A stretch of 22,665 nt of DNA from a virus (IMGVR_UViG_2744054628_000009:1-22665); one strand, 5' to 3'; positions 10,042 to 22,665 are shown, counted from the first letter of the stretch. Notes: a model not told the origin generated them from the letters alone. A program made the numbers and translations.

Positions 10042-10066
10042 AAAGTGCCTCTAAAAGAGGCGCTTT
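10042..10066. terminator. Hairpin between the convergent Q and DprA-like genes (possible bidirectional terminator)
   Basis: aaagtgcctct-aaa-agaggcgcttt: an 11-bp stem with one G-T pair, A-rich on the 5-prime side and T-rich on the 3-prime side. Confidence 0.45.
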
Positions 10067-11039
10067 AAATCAAGTCTAATGTACTCTGTTTCCCTGGCCA
10101 TTTTAGCTCTAACAAATACTCCCGAGACTCATTTATGATCATAATCACATCATCATAATCCCGTTTTGTTTTTAACGCTCTAGCCATGTTGCTCTTAACT
10201 AAATCAACTGTTCCCTCACAATTAAGATTAAGCGGATTATTAGGTAGGTGAGGTACAACCGCAAACACTGGTCTTTTCGCCTTATTTGCAAACTCAGCTT
10301 GAGTTATCGTTCCGCTATTTAACGCAGCCTCGATTAAAATTGAACCTGCAGATAATCCAACTTGTATCCGATTTCTTTGTACAAATGATTGTTTCTGGGC
10401 CGGTCGACCCATAGGATACTCAGAAATCCATGCACCACCTTTATCCAGAATCTCTTGAGCAAGTCGACTGTTTTGCTTCGGCTTAGCCTCCTCAAGACCA
10501 TGCGCCAAGACAGCAATGGTTTTTCCTTTTGCTTGTAACGTTGCCTTATGAGCATTCGCATCAGTGCCTATTGCTAACCCACTTACAACAATATACCCAG
10601 CAGACACTATTTGATTAGTGATTCGCCTCGTTATTTCTTCCCCTGCAGGGGAAGTATCACGGGATCCTACAATTGCGACACCCGGCAATTCTTTTAGTAT
10701 ACTTTTATCCCCTTTTATGTAGAGAATTGATGGTGGATTAGGAGTAAACGCTAAACTAAGAGGATAGAATTCAGACCCATATGGTATTAGCTCCACACCA
10801 TTAACATGGTGGTTCTCCAATTCAGCATTCGCTATTAGAAAATCAGTCTCAGATATTTTATCTTTTAGAAACCCGTGGCTATTAACCATCTCAGTTAAGT
10901 CGCGTATATCACGAATAACATCAAAATCAATAAGCTCAAAGAATTTCAATACACTTTGATCAGATGCTAGCTTCCCGATTTGAATAGCTAATCCAAGTGT
11001 ATTTTTTAATTCTTCTGAGTGCACTTTGCTACTCCTCAT
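10065..11039 (-). CDS. shosA: DprA/Smf-like (SLOG-fold) protein; ShosA-like
   Basis: C-terminal region VAIVGSRDTSPAGEEI...SGLAIGTDANAHKATLQAKGKTIAVLAHGLE...QRNRIQVGLSAGSILIEAALNSGTI fits the DprA Rossmann-domain pattern. Start overlaps the upstream PRTase gene by 11 nt; an AGGAG precedes an alternative GTG at 11027. Confidence 0.65.
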   Translation of the reverse strand: MRSSKVHSEELKNTLGLAIQIGKLASDQSVLKFFELIDFDVIRDIRDLTEMVNSHGFLKDKISETDFLIANAELENHHVNGVELIPYGSEFYPLSLAFTPNPPSILYIKGDKSILKELPGVAIVGSRDTSPAGEEITRRITNQIVSAGYIVVSGLAIGTDANAHKATLQAKGKTIAVLAHGLEEAKPKQNSRLAQEILDKGGAWISEYPMGRPAQKQSFVQRNRIQVGLSAGSILIEAALNSGTITQAEFANKAKRPVFAVVPHLPNNPLNLNCEGTVDLVKSNMARALKTKRDYDDVIMIINESREYLLELKWPGKQSTLDLI

Positions 11040-11604
11040 AGTTTGCAGTTTCTAGCAGAGCTAATGGCATTATAACTCCAGCTCCTGCAGACTCCAGTAA
11101 ATAAAAACACGCAGACAAACTACCGCCTGTTGTTTTAACATCATCTAGTAGTAACACATTTCGCCCCATGAGGTTACCACCCCTAACTCTGATACTAGAC
11201 ATGTGACCAGTAATTGAGCGATCTCCTCCTTCACGATGTGCGCTAGGAACAGTGCGTGTTCTTTCCAAACAGCAATCAACAATGCCCCGACGGTGAACAT
11301 TTACGATTCGCTCGGCGACCTCAATCAAAGCCGGTGAAATTCTGCCTTCAGTGTGAGATGGGACGACTGCTATCGAAAAAGGAGACTCAACAAAACGCCC
11401 ACCGCCACCTCTGATTACTAACCGCCCAACCTTATCTATAGCTAATCGAGAAAAACGGTTAATAGCCCTTTGATGATTACGATTATTTTCATCCTTAAAA
11501 TCCATCATCTGCCTTGATAGTTCATCGCTATGAGGGTTGCGCTCTCCCAAATGCCAGTAGGGGTGATACAAGCCACACGATGTAACACTTACGGGTAAAA
11601 GCAT
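11029..11604 (-). CDS. shosT: Phosphoribosyltransferase-domain protein; ShosT-like
   Basis: Type I PRTase PRPP-binding motif VLLLDDVKTTGGSL near residue 150; 191 aa; translationally coupled to the DprA-like gene. Confidence 0.65.
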   Translation of the reverse strand: MLLPVSVTSCGLYHPYWHLGERNPHSDELSRQMMDFKDENNRNHQRAINRFSRLAIDKVGRLVIRGGGGRFVESPFSIAVVPSHTEGRISPALIEVAERIVNVHRRGIVDCCLERTRTVPSAHREGGDRSITGHMSSIRVRGGNLMGRNVLLLDDVKTTGGSLSACFYLLESAGAGVIMPLALLETANYEE

Positions 11605-12132: not shown

Positions 12133-12468
12133 ATGAACAATATTCCCCCTATACCACAGTTAGGAATTTATGTCTCAAAAATCGATCCCACCCTACGTAT
12201 CACTGTAACCGATGTTGATATTGTTGATGGTGAGGATGATTCTCCTGATGATGAATTGTTTTATTTAGTCCACTGGATCGAGGGGGAAGATGAAAGTGAT
12301 ATGACAGCAATGGGATTTGAGCTAGACCCATTAGAGTGGCAGGCTTTCGTTGAATCTGAGCAATTAGTGTTTGAGCGTGATCCGTACATGGATTCAATCC
12401 CCGAAAATTCAAACTTGGCAAAGATTCGGGATTTTCTCATGAAGACTAAACAGAATGATCATTCGTAA
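12133..12468 (+). CDS. Highly acidic small hypothetical protein (111 aa)
   Basis: Strong ribosome-binding site AAAGGAG 7 nt before the ATG; protein very rich in D/E (DVDIVDGEDDSPDDELF...EGEDESD...); no family recognised. Confidence 0.6.
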   Translation: MNNIPPIPQLGIYVSKIDPTLRITVTDVDIVDGEDDSPDDELFYLVHWIEGEDESDMTAMGFELDPLEWQAFVESEQLVFERDPYMDSIPENSNLAKIRDFLMKTKQNDHS

Positions 12469-12660
12469 GTGTAAGCATCCATCAGGAAAATGGTTTTGTA
12501 AGTGAATCATCAACTTTTAGAGAGTCTCAGACACTCCCACTTCTGCTTCTGACACAAAGCGGACGATCACTTATCAAAATAACCGCCCACCTTACGCCTT
12601 ATTTCACTCATTGCCCAAACTAGCCCCCATCAGAATGAATCCTCCTGGGGGCAACATTTC

Positions 12661-12894
12661 TTAATGCAGCCAGCTGTCGTCCTCCCACACCTTCTGCATA
12701 ATTTTCATCACTTGTTTTCTTTCTTCATCCAGTTGCAGTCCGGTTAGTTCCACACCGTTAGAGCTACCTTTGCGAATGCGAATTACCGTTTTGGGATACA
12801 GGGGGCGCAGATTGCGGTAAAGCTCGGATTCAAGTGCGTCCAGGGTAGACTGGCTAATCTTCTGCTCTTTATCGATCATTATTTCAATGCGCAT
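12661..12894 (-). CDS. DinI-like protein
   Basis: MRIEIMIDKEQKISQSTLDALESELYRNL...KIMQKVWEDDSWL resembles DinI (MRIEVTIAK...). Own GAGGTG ribosome-binding site; the ORF-track start at 12966 is likely an artefactual extension. Confidence 0.7.
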   Translation of the reverse strand: MRIEIMIDKEQKISQSTLDALESELYRNLRPLYPKTVIRIRKGSSNGVELTGLQLDEERKQVMKIMQKVWEDDSWLH

Positions 12895-12904
12895 AAAAGT
12901 CACC

Positions 12905-13093
12905 TCAGCTGATGACATCCATTGAGCGGTTGTATTCGTGGCTTCTGATTTTTGCCATGAGTTCATCAGTCAATTCAGAAACCCACTGCAGAGCCAGCCC
13001 CTTCTCTTCATCACTACACTCACTAGCCGCTACAAGCTTAAGAAAAAAATCAATGCGCTGGAGCTTCAAAGACTCCAAAAAATAGTCCTGCAT
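12905..13093 (-). CDS. Small SOS-regulated protein, first gene of a LexA-controlled operon (Tum-like antirepressor candidate)
   Basis: 62-aa ORF preceded by an AGGAGG ribosome-binding site and a LexA box; its stop overlaps the ribosome-binding site of the DinI-like gene. Function inferred from position only. Confidence 0.5.
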   Translation of the reverse strand: MQDYFLESLKLQRIDFFLKLVAASECSDEEKGLALQWVSELTDELMAKIRSHEYNRSMDVIS

Positions 13094-13133
13094 CTTTCCT
13101 CCTATGACACCAAAACAATACTGTATACATAAC

Positions 13134-13153
13134 CACTGTTTATATTTACAGTA
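13134..13153 (-). promoter_or_regulatory. LexA operator (SOS box) in the promoter of the tum/dinI-like operon
   Basis: caCTGTttatatttACAGta is a perfect CTGT-N8-ACAG with an AT-rich spacer, 41-60 nt upstream of the ATG at 13093; a CTGT half-site sits at 13121-13124. Confidence 0.7.
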
Positions 13154-13245
13154 TATAATAATCTTACTGATGTAAAACGTTTTTTTACGTTCATCGGCCT
13201 GATATGCCTGGTATTATTAAGAGCACGAATTGTTAACCCGCGTAA

Positions 13246-15660
13246 TTAATACAGGTTCCGCCACTTATCATCTTCCTTCAGACGCTGGTTCCGATAGAAG
13301 ATACGCAGGCCTGCTCCTGACGGAATACTGCCGCCGCGAAGGAGCAAATCGACTTCTTTCTCGCTGCCATCAAATCCCCTGGACTTCAGTTCATAGACGA
13401 GCTGCTGTCGCTGATGGTCTGTAATTCGCTGTTTGTAGTCTTTACGCCGTTTCGGTTTCACCTGGCGTAACCTTGCAGCCAGTTCCCGGCGCTCTTTTTT
13501 GCTCATACTGTGCAGGTAATCGTGCAACTCCTTGTCATTCATACGGGTAATATCCGTTCTGGAGTCCCCATCAGCTGATTTGTCTTTCCCTTGTTGGTTC
13601 AAATTTTCAGCAAGGGGACAGTTATTGCCACGAGTCCAAGGGGCGCAAGCGCCCTGGTCGGCTGCCGCCTCCTGAACGTCAACGACCTTACGAACCATTT
13701 TCCATTTCATTGCATGAGTGCAGATCTTGCCCTGTACAATGGGTGACCAGATGCCATAAATACGAATACCGTGATCGCCATAAGCGGTCGGCTCTTCGTT
13801 AATTTCATAAGCTGTTCTGATAAGGTGATATTTGCGGGGAACCAGTACGCCGCCCTGCTTCATGATGTAGGTGGCAAAACAGCCAGCATCAGCGGCAGCC
13901 AGGATGGCATCAAGGCGCGGGTCATCCAGTACCGGCGCACCTGCTTTTTTATCACCCTGTTGCCTTGCCGCCTGACCAGCCAGCAAGCGAAGTTCACGGT
14001 ACGCCTGACGCCCCGGAATACCAAAGAAGCGGAACTGCTGAACACGATGCAGAGACGCCCAGGCATTAACGTATTCGGCGTTATCACGCAGGGATTTACC
14101 CGTTTCCTTGCTGATCTCGCCAGCCAGACCACGTCCGTCAATGTTCTTACTGATGTATTTCGCGATGTAGCTTGTCGGCGTTCCTTTGCGCGGGTTTATC
14201 AGCTCAGACTTAAAGCGTGGACCCGTGTTATTGCCCAGTTCCTCGCGGTCTTCACGGATGGCAAACTTACGCAACAATGCAGTAATGGCGCGGCGGTCTT
14301 TTTTGCGCATGAAACACATGAGATGCCAGTGCACAGTACCGTCATGGTGCGGCTCAGCCACCCGCACGCCATACCAGCGCAACCCGGCTTTGTGCATAGC
14401 CTTACGAAATGCAGCAAACATGCCGACCAGATAATCGCTGCTTTGTCTTACCGTCGCATTTGTCCAGGTTGGGTTTGGTCTGCCGTTATTGAGCGTAGAA
14501 TGGAAACGTGACGGACAGGTAATGGTGTAGAAAACGGCGCAGTCACCACGCATTTCCGCGATAAGCTCCAGACCTTTAACACAGGCCATCATCTCATTGC
14601 GGCGGTGCGCCGGGTTGCTGCTGCTGGCGTTTACCACGTCTTCCATATCCAGCGTGTCGCCGTCTTCGTTCACCAGTTCATGAGAACGGAAAAACTCCAG
14701 CGACTTGCGGCGCTGCTCACGTTTATGCGTCACTGCTTCATAGCTGACATAGGGAGATGCTTTTTTGCTGACCAGGCAGACAGCACGCAACTGCTCTTCC
14801 CGCCATTCGCAACGTATCTTCCACAATTTTCGATACCACCAGTCGGCGCAAAGCATACGTGCCAGCGAACCCGGTATGAGTTCATAGGGCACGGGTTTGC
14901 GGCGGTTTCTTTTCCGACGGAGTTTCTCAAACGCAGGCGGGATAACATCCAGACGCAGGGTTTCCGCTGCCACCTTTTCCCATGTCTTGCGGATTTCTTC
15001 TGGCTTAACGTCATCGGAGGCATACAAATCACCACAAGCGGCCTCAAGACACATGCTCATATGCGCTGCTACCAAGGTGGACAGGCGTTTTACCTGATCC
15101 TGACTCATTTCAGGTAGGATCAGCAGGCCCTCAAGCCCTTGATGGCTTGCCATAAAACGGAAAGAAGCGGATAGCTGACTGTCGCGTACATACTCCAGTC
15201 GCTCCAGACATGACTTAATCGTCTCACGCAAATAGCGGGAATAAGCCTTTGGCCTGCCCAGGCTGCTGAAGTATTCGATACGTTGCATCAGCGGCTTGCT
15301 GATGTGGGTGGGCTGGGCGCTGACGTCCGCCAGAATGACCATGTCCGGGTTAAAACGCTGCTGCTCATGCGCCAGCTTTGCCCGACTAATGAGATTATCC
15401 TGCTCCATTTCGCGCTGGACAGGATCACGGGATTCATTAAAGAAATAACGCTCCCAGACCTGCTCACTCAGTGCATCGCGGCGCAGCTGTTCCTGCTCGT
15501 TATCGGCAGCGTACAAAGTGATCATGTTTGAAAGTGCAGACTCCGGCGCAACTTCCGCCGGGTCCAGATAAGGGTTAATGGCCTTTTTCGGGCCGTTCCA
15601 TGAAAATGCTGCAGCGGCCTCGTTAAAGCCGCTAGAGTTGCTCATATCATCATGACTCAT
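13246..15660 (-). CDS. A: Replication initiation protein gpA-like (rolling-circle nickase)
   Basis: 804-aa ORF at the end of the early operon with an ATGA overlap to the upstream dam gene; sequence recalls P2/186 gpA. Confidence 0.8.
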
Positions 15661-16513
15661 ACACGCACCTCGTACACAGCAGAACTATCCACGCCACGCG
15701 AAGGATCAAATCCCACCCAGCAGCGCGCCCCGGAAACAGCAATGATTTCTGTTGCAGATTTACTCTCGCCAGCCGACACGCCGATGCTGCGTTTTGCCTT
15801 GATGTAGTGGTGAGTGAAATTGCGATACAGCGAACGAATCAGGGATGTGTCACTGTTAGAAACAATGACCGGATGACCTTCAGATGATCGATGTTCAAGA
15901 ACGGATGCCAGGTGATACTGGTCATCCTCAGTGAAGCCATCAGTGTGATAGCCGGAAAACGTACCGTCATAAGGCGGATCGCAATACACCACATCCCCCG
16001 CCTTCAACATCGCCAGCGTTTCATCAAAGCTGGCGCAGATAAACGTTGCTCGCTGGGCTTTTTCTGCAAATTTGCGAATTTCTTTTTCAGGGAAATACGG
16101 ATTTTTATAATTCCCGTAGGGAATGTTGAATGCCCGCTCTTGTTATAGCGACATAACCCACGGTAACCATGACGATTGAGATACAGGAAATATACCGCTT
16201 TCATGAAATCAGTAATTTCAGTGGAGTAATTAAACTCCTGCCTTATGTTGTAATAAGCCACCTCCCTGTTTGCTTCCTCAAATAAAGCTCTGGCACGAGA
16301 TATAAACGCCTCGCAATCAGCAGCAACCTTTTTATAGAGGTTGATTAAATCAGGATTAATATCCGCAACAAGATAGCTGGGGTAATCCGTCTCTATCATC
16401 ACAGCACAAGAACCCGCGAAAGGTTCAACCAGTCGCGGGCCAGCAGGAAGGTATTTTTTCAGTTCTGGCATAATGGCGGTTTTATTACCCGCCCATTTCA
16501 GGATGGTGCTCAT
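15657..16513 (-). pseudogene. dam: DNA adenine methyltransferase (Dam-like) with a frameshift near 16129-16131
   Basis: N-terminal ORF has motif I ([11 protein letters not shown]) and ...[17 protein letters not shown]; the -1 frame continues [38 protein letters not shown]...VVYCDPPY (motif IV). One base missing in a short homopolymer. Confidence 0.8.
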
Positions 16514-16737
16514 ACAGCACCTCCGTTGTAATGTTTGCCTTTCAGCTCTGCGATTTCCTGACAGGTAATGCAAAGCTGCACACCCGGAATGGCGCGACGT
16601 CGTGCTGGCGGAATTGGTGCTTCACACTCAATGCAAAGCACGCGGGATACGCCCGGCGTTTTGGCGCGGGCAGCACGGATATGACGCTGGCGTTCTTCTT
16701 CAACGCGCTGCTGTACGAGATCCATTGCATCAGCCAT
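16510..16737 (-). CDS. TraR/DksA-family C4 zinc-finger protein
   Basis: C-x2-C ... C-x2-C pattern ([26 protein letters not shown]); AGGAG ribosome-binding site; ATGA overlaps with both neighbours. Confidence 0.7.
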
Positions 16738-18415: not shown

Positions 18416-18439
18416 GACAAAAGTTCACTTGGAGTGACC

Positions 18440-19009
18440 ATGAATTTGGAGAAAGGCGGACGAGGCGCTATAGAGCGCATGGTAGAAGCATATGGCTTCA
18501 AGACTCGACAGGCGTTGTGCGATCACTTAGGAATCTCTAAAAGTACTCTCGCCACACGCTATATGCGTGACTCATTCCCTGCTGAATGGGTAATCCAGTG
18601 CGCACTTGAAACGGGCGCCTCGCTTAACTGGCTCACGACCGGACATGGTTCAAAGCAAACTTCAGGTAATACAAATACTATGGAAGTCGTTAAATATGTA
18701 TTATCTGATGGAACCTTGCAGGAAGATGGTTTTTATATTTTCGATAAAGAATTTCTACCATCTACGCTCAAAAATCCGTTTGTAATCACCGATAACAATT
18801 CCGTTTTTATTTGCGATAAAGAGTTTAACGATATTCGTGACGGCAAATGGGTAATAAGTATTGATGCCGAAGTAACAATCCGCGATATCACTCGTTTACC
18901 TGGTGGAAGAATCTTAGTTGAAGGTGGAAATAGGGCTTTCGAATGTAAAAAAGAAGAAATTGAAATTATTGGAAAAATTATAAGCATAACAGTTAAGTAC
19001 TTTGAGTAA
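18440..19009 (+). CDS. cI: 186-type CI immunity repressor
   Basis: N-terminal HTH motif AIERMVEAYGFKTRQALCDHLGISKSTLATRYMRDSFPAEWVIQCALETG plus a CI C-terminal-type domain. GGAG at 18431-18434 precedes the ATG at 18440; an alternative in-frame GTG is at 18434. Confidence 0.75.
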   Translation: MNLEKGGRGAIERMVEAYGFKTRQALCDHLGISKSTLATRYMRDSFPAEWVIQCALETGASLNWLTTGHGSKQTSGNTNTMEVVKYVLSDGTLQEDGFYIFDKEFLPSTLKNPFVITDNNSVFICDKEFNDIRDGKWVISIDAEVTIRDITRLPGGRILVEGGNRAFECKKEEIEIIGKIISITVKYFE

Positions 19010-19059: not shown

Positions 19060-19983
19060 ATGTCAACTCAAAAATTAAAATTTAGCCATATCAAAAACGA
19101 TCTGAAAGCAATAGTTATGCAGAATCGTGGAGGGCAAAAAGTTATTGAGCGTATACTCCTAGCCTATGGCTTCAAGTCACGACAGGCATTATGTAATCAT
19201 CTAGGTATTTCCCAAAGTACTATGGCCAACAGATATGCACGTAATACCTTTCCTGCAGATTGGGTTGTTATATGTTCCATAGAAACAGGAGCATCAATTG
19301 AATGGTTAGTTCTTGGTTCAGATACTGCTCCTTCATCAAAGCAATATTCTGAAAAACATGCCGTTAATGGCCTTTGCAATGAAGTATACATTCCCACTAT
19401 AAAGTTCGATAATGAAAAACTCATGAATTTTAACCGAGGGGGTAAGGCAACAATAGAACGAATTGTCGAGGCTTACGGTTACAAAACGCGCCAAGCATTA
19501 GCTGATCACCTAGGTATTTCAAAAAGCACATTAGCCACACGATACATGCGTGACATTTTTCCTGCAGACTGGGTTTTGCAGTGTGCAATAGAAACGGGCC
19601 ATTCTATTGAATGGATTTCATTTGGTACAGGAGAAATGAAAAACGCAAAAAATAAAGATACTTTAACATTAGTGAAAAAAGTATTAATCAATGGCAAGTT
19701 AATAAATGATGGCTCATATTTATTTGACCCATGCTTTCTACCTTCCAATTTAAAAAATGCATTCGTAGTATCTACCGAAGACTCTGAATTAATATGTGAA
19801 ATAGGTTTTAAAGATGTACATGATGGTAAGTGGCTAGTAAATATTGATGGAGAGAATTCATTTAGAATGATAACTCGACTACCTAAAGGACGAGTTTATA
19901 TTTCATCCCAAAATCACTCTTTTGAATGTTCGCTTACAGACATTGAGTTTATTGCAAAAGTTATTATAAGTTGTTTACATTAA
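19060..19983 (+). CDS. CI-repressor paralog with two tandem N-terminal HTH domains and a CI-like C-terminal domain
   Basis: Two HTH copies (about aa 22-85 and 127-190) each resemble the cI N-terminus; the second is roughly 85% identical by eye. The C-terminal part aligns with the cI C-terminus (LPSNLKN..., DGKWL.NID..., ITRLP.GR). AT-rich. Confidence 0.65.
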   Translation: MSTQKLKFSHIKNDLKAIVMQNRGGQKVIERILLAYGFKSRQALCNHLGISQSTMANRYARNTFPADWVVICSIETGASIEWLVLGSDTAPSSKQYSEKHAVNGLCNEVYIPTIKFDNEKLMNFNRGGKATIERIVEAYGYKTRQALADHLGISKSTLATRYMRDIFPADWVLQCAIETGHSIEWISFGTGEMKNAKNKDTLTLVKKVLINGKLINDGSYLFDPCFLPSNLKNAFVVSTEDSELICEIGFKDVHDGKWLVNIDGENSFRMITRLPKGRVYISSQNHSFECSLTDIEFIAKVIISCLH

Positions 19984-20008
19984 GTAAATTTTTCATGGAG
20001 ACTTCATA

Positions 20009-21526
20009 GTGAAATGTGGTGATTGTAATTGGAACTGGGATGAAGAAACTACCTTTATATTAGACGACGAAGAGGAAATTCTTTCCAAAGACAAACTTAA
20101 TCGGAGACACTATGCAGAATATCTATATTTTTATCTTAAGGAAAAGGGGAAAAAGAACAACACGGTAATCAACCTTAATGCAGAATGGGGAGCTGGTAAA
20201 AGTTTTTTCATAAAGAGATTTTATAACTCAATAAAAGATGCACACCCATGCGTTTACATTGATGCCTGGAAGCAAGACTTTTCTGATGATGCATTTTTAA
20301 CCCTTTTTTCTTCTTTGTCACAACAATTGCAAACATATGCAGGAAAACTTGATGCTCGATTGATACAAAGCGGCCATGCTATCGGACGCTTTACAAAAGG
20401 TGTTCTACCTGAAATCATATCTGGCCTAATCAAGACTTATGCAGGAGTAGATAACGTAGGTGATATAGCCAAAGAAGCCTCATTAATAATGCTGAAGGAA
20501 CACCAGGAAAAACTGAAGAGCATTAAGGTATTAAAAAAAGAACTAACGTTATGGTCTAGGTTGGCATATGAAAATAGTTTTTCATATCCTATATTTATCT
20601 TTATAGATGAATTAGACAGATGCAGGCCAGATTATGCAATTTCTCTTTTAGAGATTGTTAAACATATATTCGATATTAAAAATTTTGTCTTTATTATTGC
20701 TACTGACACAGATCAATTACAACATTCAATCAAGAATGTTTACGGTAATGATTTTTCCGCAAATGACTATTTAGGCCGTTTTTTTCATAGAAGATTTACT
20801 TTAAAACAACCTGAACTTAAAGATTTAATTAATGGTGTTGTTGGTGATTATATTGGTACCGATTTTGAAAATATCACATCAAAAACATACCCACTAACAG
20901 CAACATTAGAAGACTTTTCAATAAATATTTCCAACGTATTTGAAGCATTTGGGTTAAATCTAAGAGACTCAATCCGAAATACTGAAAGGTTAATAGACAT
21001 TCTTAAATCTGATTTAGTCAAAAAGAAAGTAGATTATATTTTTATAATTTCGCTAATGATTATATATGATAAGGATCGTCAAATTATAGATGGACTAATT
21101 GGTCGAAGAAATGCAGCACAACGTTTCACTGATTCGATAAAGCAAAGCTCCAATTTAAAAGGTGTTTCTCAAGCCATCCTTGAATTAAATCTTGATACAA
21201 ATCAGCAAAGAATAGGTGTCAATTATATCTATAGAACGGCGAGCAGTAGATTATTCATCTCACAGATCGAGCCCAAAATAAATTTAACATTAATAAATTA
21301 CTTAGATGTTGCATTGTATTTTATTAATAATATAAACATGCTTAAATCAAGTATAAAAAACAATGGGCAAAATTCACTAATGATTATATCTCAACAAGGC
21401 CCTATTGATGGTGATACAGCTATAAAGTATTTGCAAGGAGCCCTTATAGAGAATGGTCTGAATACATCTTTTTATGCCTTACATAATTACATTGAATTAA
21501 TTGAACTGGCCACATCATTTGATTAA
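20009..21526 (+). CDS. KAP-family P-loop NTPase (PifA-like)
   Basis: Walker A GAGKSFF (about aa 60) and Walker B IFIFIDELDRCRP (about aa 196), in the form typical of KAP NTPases; GTG start with GGAG 8 nt upstream; strongly AT-rich, 505 aa. Confidence 0.65.
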   Translation: MKCGDCNWNWDEETTFILDDEEEILSKDKLNRRHYAEYLYFYLKEKGKKNNTVINLNAEWGAGKSFFIKRFYNSIKDAHPCVYIDAWKQDFSDDAFLTLFSSLSQQLQTYAGKLDARLIQSGHAIGRFTKGVLPEIISGLIKTYAGVDNVGDIAKEASLIMLKEHQEKLKSIKVLKKELTLWSRLAYENSFSYPIFIFIDELDRCRPDYAISLLEIVKHIFDIKNFVFIIATDTDQLQHSIKNVYGNDFSANDYLGRFFHRRFTLKQPELKDLINGVVGDYIGTDFENITSKTYPLTATLEDFSINISNVFEAFGLNLRDSIRNTERLIDILKSDLVKKKVDYIFIISLMIIYDKDRQIIDGLIGRRNAAQRFTDSIKQSSNLKGVSQAILELNLDTNQQRIGVNYIYRTASSRLFISQIEPKINLTLINYLDVALYFINNINMLKSSIKNNGQNSLMIISQQGPIDGDTAIKYLQGALIENGLNTSFYALHNYIELIELATSFD

Positions 21527-21588
21527 AAGCATTGTTTGAATAAACTAAACCATACATTGACCACTGGTCAAACATACAGTTAAATTTA

Positions 21589-21612
21589 GCCCTCTGATAT
21601 GAGGGCTTTATT
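21589..21612 (+). terminator. Rho-independent terminator ending at the int start codon
   Basis: gccctc-tgatat-gagggc followed by tttatt, then ATG at 21613. Confidence 0.6.
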
Positions 21613-22665
21613 ATGGCAGTACGAAAACTCACCACAGGAAAATGGCTTTGCGAATGTTACCCCGCCGGACGTAGTGGGCGTCGTGTGCGTAAACAATTCG
21701 CCACCAAAGGCGAAGCACTGGCTTTTGAGCGTCACACGATGGAAGAAACCGAAGCAAAGCCCTGGCTGGGTGAATCAGTGGATCGTCGAACACTGAAAGA
21801 CGTGGTTGAGCTATGGTTCAAACTACATGGTAAATCTCTGACTGCTGGGCAGCATGTCTATGACAAATTGCTGCTGATGGTTGACGCTCTGGGCAATCCC
21901 CTTGCAACTGATCTAACCTCTAAAATGTTTGCCCACTATCGAGATAAACGCCTGACAGGTGAGATCTACTTCAGTGAGAAATGGAAGAAAGGAGCAAGCC
22001 CGGTCACCATTAACCTGGAGCAAAGCTATCTAAGTAGTGTTTTTAGCGAACTATCCCGCCTGGGCGAATGGTCGTATCCGAACCCACTGGAGAACATGCG
22101 AAAATTCACCATCGCAGAAAAAGAGATGGCATGGCTTACCCATGAGCAGATTGTTGAATTACTAGCTGATTGCAAACGTCAGGACCCAATTCTGGCACTG
22201 GTAGTTAAGATATGCTTAAGCACAGGCGCACGCTGGCGAGAAGCCGTAAATCTTACCCGCTCACAGGTGACCAAATACCGAATTACCTTTGTAAGAACGA
22301 AGGGGAAGAAAAACAGAAGCATCCCTATCAGTAAAGAGCTTTACGAAGAGATCATGGCGCTTGATGGGTTCAATTTCTTCACAGACTGCTATTTTCAATT
22401 TTTATCCGTGATGGAAAAAACGTCTATCGTGCTCCCTCGCGGTCAACTCACACACGTTCTGCGCCATACGTTTGCGGCGCACTTCATGATGTCGGGTGGA
22501 AACATTCTGGCCTTACAAAAAATTCTCGGACACCACGATATAAAAATGACTATGCGTTACGCACATCTGGCACCGGATCATCTGGAAACGGCGCTCCGTT
22601 TCAATCCTCTGGCAACGCTGCCAAGTGGCGACAAAGTGGCGGCAGCGGTTGGCATTACCCCGTAA
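21613..22665 (+). CDS. int: Tyrosine integrase (P2/186 Int family)
   Basis: 350 aa; C-terminal catalytic region ...HVLRHTFAAHFMMSGGNILALQKILGHHDIKMTMRYAHL with the conserved R/H/R/Y arrangement; sits at the end of the prophage opposite ogr. Confidence 0.85.
   Translation: MAVRKLTTGKWLCECYPAGRSGRRVRKQFATKGEALAFERHTMEETEAKPWLGESVDRRTLKDVVELWFKLHGKSLTAGQHVYDKLLLMVDALGNPLATDLTSKMFAHYRDKRLTGEIYFSEKWKKGASPVTINLEQSYLSSVFSELSRLGEWSYPNPLENMRKFTIAEKEMAWLTHEQIVELLADCKRQDPILALVVKICLSTGARWREAVNLTRSQVTKYRITFVRTKGKKNRSIPISKELYEEIMALDGFNFFTDCYFQFLSVMEKTSIVLPRGQLTHVLRHTFAAHFMMSGGNILALQKILGHHDIKMTMRYAHLAPDHLETALRFNPLATLPSGDKVAAAVGITP

Follow-up and report, generated by a model that had tools for sequence, protein, structure and literature searches.

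The closest described systems are the tum loci of phages 186, PSP3 and Fels-2. Phage 186 Tum is a LexA-controlled antirepressor that binds the CI repressor, according to Shearwin et al. 1998 as cited in PMC3121763, and the p95-tum module suffices for UV derepression of the 186 switch (PMC7708051). Lemire et al. 2011 (PMC3121763) describe Tum as resembling a fusion of an antirepressor with DinI. In the 186 record the p95 promoter, a LexA site overlapping its -10 element, tum, and an internally initiated DinI-like product are all annotated. In Fels-2 and PSP3 tum is split by a stop codon, as stated by Lemire et al. 2011 with reference to Bunny et al. 2002 (PMC3121763), and the upstream PSP3 gene carries antirepressor activity according to a personal communication cited second-hand in the same source. 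The PSP3 record describes tumA as "similar to 5' end 186 tum; UV induction of prophage" and tumB as "similar to dinI and 3' end of 186 tum", while in the Fels-2 record the downstream gene is annotated as similar to PSP3 TumB. The split tum arrangement is thus already described, in the PSP3 annotation and in the literature on Fels-2 and PSP3. For Fels-2, all survivors of a lexA-null Salmonella LT2 were without the prophage, as Bunny et al. 2002 is summarised in PMC12626290. A survey of the Salmonella SOS regulon used strain 14028, which evidently lacks Fels-2 (PMC8072944).

The DNA analyzed here is a 22,665-nt viral stretch, hereafter referred to as the window. It contains a prophage inserted between ybjL and rcdA, a location shared with many E. 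coli genomes. A first-pass annotation of the window proposed a LexA-boxed operon of two genes, a small protein and a DinI-like protein, at the position that tum occupies in 186. All features of this operon lie on the minus strand, where they had been placed. On this strand gene A is followed by the LexA box, a 62-aa ORF (hereafter tumA) and a DinI-family gene (hereafter tumB), with 152 nt of intergenic DNA between gene A and tumA. The features are as follows.

13246-15660, minus strand: gene A, P2/186-type replication nickase, 804 aa (Pfam Phage_GPA, E 5.8e-128; synteny with 186, Fels-2 and PSP3)
12661-13176, minus strand: whole operon, including its putative promoter
13098-13103, minus strand: tumA ribosome-binding site AGGAGG, 4 nt 5' of the ATG (read from the sequence; GGAGG kept in relatives)
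12905-13093, minus strand: tumA-like gene, 62 aa, putative LexA-controlled antirepressor (phrog_698; cross-matches within the Tum/TumA family)
12900-12906, minus strand: tumB ribosome-binding site GAGGTGA (read from the sequence)
12661-12894, minus strand: tumB-like gene, 77 aa, DinI family (Pfam DinI; 186 Tum residues 71-145; phrog_189)
12623-12652, minus strand: candidate weak terminator hairpin 3' of tumB, GCCCCCA...TGGGGGC then UAGUUUG (7-bp G+C stem in the fold)

The operon is located directly downstream of gene A and on the same strand, as p95-tum is in 186, and the tum position is identical in 186, Fels-2 and PSP3. That the two parts are separate genes, each with its own ribosome-binding site, can be read directly in the sequence. 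The intercistronic gap is 10 nt, and the tumB ribosome-binding site overlaps the TGA stop codon of tumA (12905-12907). Around the operon, 900 bp align at 96-97% identity with Salmonella phage Fels-2, and dozens of P2-like phages from Klebsiella, Salmonella and E. coli are equally close. Of 5,426 complete E. coli genomes, 1,125 (about a fifth) contain the 520-bp operon, in most cases at 95-100% identity, and RefSeq names the pair "DinI-like family protein" and "hypothetical protein". We consider it likely that a P2-like (Peduoviridae) prophage of the Fels-2 type carries its SOS operon here, as a split version of 186 tum. The first-pass reading of an SOS-responsive split tum operon is supported by the operator, by homology to Tum and by synteny, while derepression itself would follow by analogy with the described phages.

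Folding of the hairpin that follows tumB was no better than that of shuffled sequences (z-score -1.6), and a terminator scanner made no call there. Homology to Fels-2 stops at the tumB stop codon, so this hairpin lies within a variable cargo region. The only "terminator" called by the scanner in 12300-13500 was a hairpin over the tumA stop codon and the tumB ribosome-binding site, which was regarded as incidental.

The SOS box had been described as near-consensus and as overlapping a promoter. We scored it with an approximate LexA weight matrix, for which 29 SOS boxes of E. coli served as the training set. Two overlapping operator sites and a putative promoter were delineated.

13171-13176, minus strand: putative -35 hexamer TTTACA (by analogy with 186 p95; conserved in Fels-2-type phages)
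13148-13153, minus strand: putative -10 hexamer TACTGT, inside box 1 (identical to the annotated 186 p95 -10)
13134-13153, minus strand: LexA box 1, TACTGTAAATATAAACAGTG (23.3 bits; CTGT-N8-ACAG core at 13136-13151)
13119-13138, minus strand: LexA box 2, CAGTGGTTATGTATACAGTA, with GTG replacing CTG, overlapping box 1 (15.1 bits)

The core of box 1, CTGTTTATATTTACAG, is a perfect CTGT-N8-ACAG site and the sole exact match to this pattern in the window. Box 1 is also the best LexA match, ranking first among all 20-mers of the window and scoring above 25 of the 29 training sites. In 50 shuffles the best score averaged 10.3 bits (sd 2.4), with a maximum of 18.8 bits. An alignment with 12 related phages revealed both boxes in every Fels-2-type phage, whereas in 186, PSP3 and ESSI-type phages there is just one consensus LexA box, which aligns with box 2. 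In 9 Fels-2-type phages the CTG and CAG triplets of both boxes are kept around variable spacers, as one would expect of a protein-binding site.

The alternative that a palindrome resembling a LexA site arose by chance in the A+T-rich intergenic DNA, with the operon being constitutive or read through from gene A, was weighed against these data. The window shows no enrichment of sites that deviate from CTGT-N8-ACAG by one mismatch (9 observed, 6.8 expected), a generic sigma-70 consensus scan of 12300-13500 called no promoter, and there is no strong terminator between gene A and the operon, all of which would fit chance and read-through. A chance origin, however, would have to account for a sole exact match that scores far above the shuffles, for triplets that are preserved around changing spacers, for the presence of a box at the corresponding position of 186, PSP3 and ESSI-type phages, and for a sequence near-identical to experimentally studied colicin-type operators. 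We give this alternative almost no credence.

As regards the promoter, the annotated 186 p95 has the form TTCACA-18-TACTGT, and the window offers TTTACA and TACTGT with a 17-nt spacing. The -10 hexamer TACTGT matches the consensus at only three of six positions. By analogy with p95, a promoter TTTACA-17-TACTGT would overlap LexA box 1, with its putative -10 element inside the box, in agreement with the overlap that the first-pass annotation had proposed.

The double operator goes beyond what had been claimed for this locus. A 49-nt segment spanning the boxes is 85-88% identical, over about 47 nt, to small Col-type plasmids and the Yersinia pestis plasmid pPCP1, and the matching segments are situated directly upstream of the colicin R gene (pColR cra) and the pesticin gene (pPCP1 pst). 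Alignment with the pColR cra and pPCP1 pst promoters revealed a shared operator architecture, TATACTGT-N8-ACAGTGGTTAT..TACAGTATT. Two units of the CTG-N10-CAG type share one base, and the second unit starts with GTGG, as in colicin-type operators. The one-base overlap and the GTGG left half of box 2 are found in the colicin R and pesticin operators as in the window; the likeness is limited to the operator, since the upstream promoter sequence and the downstream genes are unrelated to those of the window. Double SOS boxes of colicin genes bind two LexA dimers, resulting in very tight repression and in expression in a small fraction of cells (PMC2994835). By analogy, two LexA dimers probably occupy the phage double operator, and the window promoter would be expected to have a higher induction threshold than the single-box p95 of 186. 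As a side observation, the double operator provides a minor lead on induction thresholds.

The relation of the 62-aa ORF to Tum is detectable at the profile level. BLASTP of the ORF against 186 Tum and against PSP3 TumA gave no alignment, and tblastn of three TumA types against the phage collection gave no cross-matches. Searches of PHROG profiles linked the ORF to its own family phrog_698 (E 5.9e-38), to a bridging family phrog_8554 (E 1.1e-8) and to phrog_1993, the family of PSP3 TumA (E 2e-3). The N-terminal half of 186 Tum matched the same three families, with E values of 6.4e-6 for phrog_698, 3.2e-12 for phrog_8554 and 1.9e-23 for phrog_1993. When a six-sequence alignment of each family was used as hhalign input, the ORF family and the Tum/TumA family were matched with a probability of 97.1% (E 5.9e-11), residues 3-44 on 3-44. 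The common Tum/TumA core reads ...E..(L/I)(Q/E)R(I/V)..(F/I)..L.A...C...(E/D)(K/R).(L/I)AL.(W/L)(V/I).E(L/I)..., with an invariant cysteine. Identity between the TumA-equivalent region of 186 and window TumA is only about 18-21%. As judged by these profile comparisons, the 62-aa ORF is homologous to the N-terminal (antirepressor) half of Tum, and the link to Tum that had been suggested for it holds at this level, BLASTP being negative.

The 62-aa ORF is a real gene, since its dN/dS in frame is 0.04-0.11 compared to about 1-7 in the other two frames (dS about 1), indicating purifying selection. A single-sequence AF2 model, with a pLDDT of 91.5, predicts a helical hairpin whose loop holds the conserved cysteine; a Foldseek search of the PDB with this model returned nothing below E = 1 and generic helical hairpins only. 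Phages ESSI-2, ESSI2_ev015 and YenM_324 have a TumA-like gene behind a LexA box and no DinI module, and ENT90 appears to be TumA-only too, as judged from about 400 nt of downstream sequence. These TumA-only P2-like phages point to TumA as the core component of the system.

The coupled downstream gene had been called DinI-like, and its product matches Pfam DinI (PF06183) with E 6.6e-23 and residues 71-145 of 186 Tum with 41% identity (E 3e-24). Both ORFs of the operon therefore align to Tum, the second one to its C-terminal half. The protein falls in phrog_189 and by eye is closely similar to PSP3 TumB. Its score against the NCBIfam DinI equivalog NF007893 is 42.7 bits, below the cut-off of 111 bits, which makes it a member of a DinI-like family and not an orthologue of host DinI. 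A mechanically called 101-aa ORF (12661-12966) was rejected as the real gene, because homologues and annotations start at the MRI... ATG at 12894; this 77-aa start agrees with PSP3 TumB, Fels-2 STM2726.1 and RefSeq. When dinI homologues of Gifsy prophages were removed by non-polar deletion, induction did not change measurably; what TumB does is uncertain.

The presumed target of TumA is encoded elsewhere in the window.

18434-19009, plus strand: 186-type CI repressor, 191 aa, presumed TumA target (Pfam Phage_CI_repr, 3e-33; Phage_CI_C, 7e-27)

A Pfam search of this CI detected no Peptidase_S24 domain. An antirepressor would therefore be needed for SOS induction, as the repressor lacks a self-cleavage domain. 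This bears on a second alternative, in which the 62-aa ORF is not an antirepressor and the unit is an SOS-induced DinI-like "moron" that modulates RecA for the host, with a small protein of unrelated or unknown role encoded ahead of it. Such a reading would suit the databases, where the ORF is labelled just "hypothetical protein" and belongs to no Pfam, NCBIfam or PADLOC family, and it has a precedent in the LexA-controlled prophage dinI homologues of Gifsy phages. It does not explain the profile-level homology of the ORF to the antirepressor half of Tum and to PSP3 TumA, or the retention of a TumA-like gene alone behind a LexA box in the three phages named above, and it leaves a CI without self-cleavage domain to do without the antirepressor that it needs. 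We regard it as very unlikely and retain the view that the 62-aa ORF is a putative TumA-type antirepressor gene.

The pairing of TumA with CI varies among the relatives. Window CI is 31% identical to 186 CI. Phages that share 97-100% of TumA residues have CIs with 39-56% identity to window CI; for those with 97-98% identity to window TumA, the CI range is 39-53%. TumA is 100% identical in 813R9, Kp4860-7 and Cartapus, and their CIs are 39-47% identical to one another; overall, TumA is 84-100% conserved in phages with CIs that are 33-62% identical to each other. Synonymous divergence of tumA is saturated, which attributes its conservation to selection and not to recent ancestry. Compared to window CI within the group of TumA carriers, the N-terminal domains of CI are 59-72% identical and the C-terminal domains 22-42% identical. 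The CI positions that are invariant in TumA carriers and different in 186 and ESSI2_ev015 all fall in residues 8-55, in the N-terminal domain. We assume that window TumA acts on window CI. More tentatively, TumA may be a broad-range antirepressor that docks on a conserved N-terminal face of CI and switches on several heteroimmune P2-like prophages per cell, including defective ones, behind a double LexA operator that sets a high damage threshold; on the sequence comparisons this is possible but less than likely.

The same comparisons allow a third alternative, that TumA became mismatched to window CI after an exchange of the immunity region. The operon would then be LexA-controlled and would leave its own prophage repressed, acting at most in trans on other P2-like prophages or modulating RecA via TumB. 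The low identity of CIs among phages with near-identical TumA, most pronounced in the C-terminal domains, would be expected under such an exchange, and P2-like genomes are mosaic around the immunity region. Yet an apparently intact 37.6-kb prophage at the same site carries the same tumA-cI pairing, strong purifying selection acts on tumA in phages that differ in their CIs, and the clustering of the carrier-specific CI positions in the N-terminal domain fits a conserved docking surface. A mismatch is thus unlikely, although we would not dismiss it as readily as the two alternatives discussed above, and we proceed on the assumption that TumA and CI of the window are a functional pair.

The prophage had been taken to be defective, and comparison of the window with the apparently intact 37.6-kb relative bore this out. 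Three internal deletions, totalling 14.9 kb, were mapped.

Deletion 1: window position ~5640; bases flanking the gap in the relative 5642 and 13386; ~7.7 kb
Deletion 2: window position ~6663; bases flanking the gap in the relative 14412 and 19258; ~4.8 kb
Deletion 3: window position ~7587; bases flanking the gap in the relative 20185 and 22518; ~2.3 kb

The deletions took away the greater part of the tape-measure gene, the genes for sheath, tube, baseplate and tail fibres, every lysis gene, the genes for capsid and scaffold, and the 5' end of the gene for the terminase ATPase. With these tail, lysis and head genes lost, no virions can be made. The cI, apl-like, cII, fil, DUF5347, DUF2732, TraR/DksA-like, A and int genes are intact. 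Regulatory and early genes are thus preserved except for the Dam methylase gene, in which a 1-nt deletion at ~16129 caused a frameshift that leaves two ORFs. As far as can be read from the gene content, the regulatory circuit of the defective prophage is complete.

The mechanism that we propose for this circuit, with LexA control, binding of TumA to CI and the role of TumB, draws on work on 186, PSP3 and Fels-2. In an undamaged cell LexA would sit on the double overlapping operator (13119-13153), cover the -10 element and block transcription. Upon DNA damage RecA would be activated, LexA would cleave itself and the promoter would fire, so that one transcript would yield two proteins, TumA and TumB. 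TumA, the putative antirepressor with a predicted helical hairpin fold, would bind CI and keep it off its operators, derepressing the early lytic promoter pR. TumB may associate with RecA filaments and thereby adjust how strong the SOS signal is or how long it lasts. The expected consequence in this prophage is that apl, cII, fil and the A replicase would be switched on, possibly along with replication from the A origin and excision, virions being impossible. LexA-dependent induction by damage is known for 186 and implied genetically for Fels-2, and we infer it for the operon of the window by analogy.

Prophages of the 186/Fels-2 type have this operon as their standard induction switch, so that as a discovery it adds little. 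Naming the tumA-like gene, which is still a "hypothetical protein" in RefSeq and in most phage records, is nevertheless justified by its profile-level link to Tum. A prophage incapable of making virions may retain an entire DNA-damage sensor that is connected to its early genes (Fil, the A nickase, Apl/Int), which bears on whether "cryptic" prophages stay inert under SOS-triggering antibiotics. The double operator and the decoupling of TumA from CI are small testable leads, concerning induction thresholds and prophage cross-talk, respectively.

Among the known systems, Gifsy-1/2/3 share the general logic of the window operon. Their dinI-antirepressor operons (gfoA/gftA) are LexA-boxed and, as proposed for the window, combine a DinI homologue with a small antirepressor that acts on a non-cleavable repressor. 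They differ in their reversed gene order, with dinI first, and, as described by Lemire et al. (PMC3121763), in having antirepressors and repressors of other families and in belonging to lambdoid phages.

Phage 186 is closer. An N-terminal antirepressor module and a C-terminal DinI-like module make up its 146-aa Tum, as they do the window pair, except that in 186 they are encoded by one fused gene and in the window by two. The DinI-like part of 186 Tum is also made alone, from an internal GTG with its own ribosome-binding site, which suggests that the fused and split versions are functionally close. The LexA operator overlaps the -10 element of p95 and the putative one of the window, being a single consensus box in 186 and a double one in the window, and a 186-type CI is the target in 186 and the presumed target in the window. 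The 186 operon continues downstream with orf97, unlike that of the window.

In PSP3 the split pair and its position are the same as in the window, while its TumA belongs to another subfamily (phrog_1993, compared to phrog_698 in the window) and its operator has a single LexA box instead of two. Fels-2 has the same site after gene A, the same two-gene layout, DNA that is 96.9% identical over 738 bp, a TumA (STM2728) that is 97% identical to that of the window, and the same double LexA operator. It is distinguished by a CI only 39-41% identical to window CI and by different cargo downstream of tumB; the window prophage is, in addition, deleted for late genes.

Among the phages compared (the window together with phages L002, L005 and L007-L013), TumA, the first product of the SOS operon that follows gene A, is 84-100% conserved, while the CI repressors encoded by the same phages, the presumed TumA targets, are only 33-62% identical to one another. 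The CI residues that are specific to the group of TumA carriers all lie within the N-terminal HTH domain. In the window, tumA occupies 12905-13093 and cI 18434-19009.

A TumA-like gene without a DinI-like gene is found after gene A in ESSI2_ev015, ESSI-2 and YenM_324, where a convergent gene for a transcriptional regulator comes next, adjoining the portal gene Q. The DinI-like gene is apparently missing from ENT90 too, for which about 400 nt downstream are covered. The corresponding spans in this set of four are 7501-7713 in L014, 7501-7725 in L015, 359-598 in L019 and approximately 392-601 in L020.

Analysis of the region between cI and int revealed two further genes and, ahead of int, a LexA-like site:

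19060-21526, plus strand, CI-like protein (307 amino acids) followed by a KAP-family P-loop NTPase
21562-21581, plus strand, LexA-like box CACTGGTCAAACATACAGTT (18.7 bits)

The 307-amino acid protein, a second CI-like protein of the window, combines two N-terminal CI HTH domains with a CI C-terminal domain, and it shares 60% identity with a 313-amino acid CI-like ORF of Klebsiella phage Kp4860-7, an unannotated record in which that ORF occupies the cI position. For the NTPase, PADLOC gives a match to the candidate system PDC-S20 (7.7e-78). In Fels-2, cI adjoins int.

With 18.7 bits on an approximate weight matrix, CACTGGTCAAACATACAGTT ranks second in the window and is roughly level with the top score of shuffled sequences. 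It lies between the two hexamers of a promoter-like sequence, TTGACC-18-TAAATT, and is followed by a G+C hairpin (21588-21607) shortly upstream of the int start codon at 21613. The whole arrangement (21557-21607, plus strand) may be an SOS-responsive int promoter.

The stop codon of tumB, the DinI-like gene, is the exact end of Fels-2 homology. Between tumB and the portal gene Q the following features were identified:

10065-11604, minus strand, Shosta anti-phage defence pair (PADLOC, Pfam)
10065-11039, minus strand, ShosA, DprA-like (PADLOC 2.8e-70 and Pfam DNA_processg_A)
11029-11604, minus strand, ShosT, phosphoribosyltransferase-like (PADLOC 3.6e-14)
12133-12468, plus strand, acidic ORF of 111 amino acids, convergent with tumB (phrog_17127, 6.6e-70)

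The interval from tumB to Q is a variable hotspot, which here holds the Shosta pair. Searches of Pfam and PADLOC with the 111-amino acid ORF returned no matches, and its counterpart in a relative is labelled "hypothetical protein" in RefSeq.

Comparison with L016, an apparently intact 37.6-kb relative, revealed three deletion junctions in the window, at approximately 5640, 6663 and 7587, at each of which the alignment blocks on the two sides share 3-5 nt. In total 14.9 kb are gone, comprising genes for tail, baseplate, lysis, capsid and scaffold, together with the terminase gene's 5′ end. Loss of 1 nt, relative to L016, from an A run at approximately 16129 divides the phage Dam methylase gene (D12-class; 15657-16573, minus strand) into two ORFs; the gene is either a pseudogene or the product of a homopolymer sequencing error.

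The tum leader also differs from that of L016, by a 1-nt insertion at 13112, between LexA box 2 and the ribosome-binding site. Since five complete E. coli genomes carry exactly the version seen in the window, this insertion is a natural variant. The tum double SOS operator itself shares 85-88% identity with the operators that small Col-type plasmids carry for colicin R and pesticin (aligned spans: window, 13112-13160; plasmid loci L017, 482-529, and L018, 1501-1546), and the likeness is confined to the operator.
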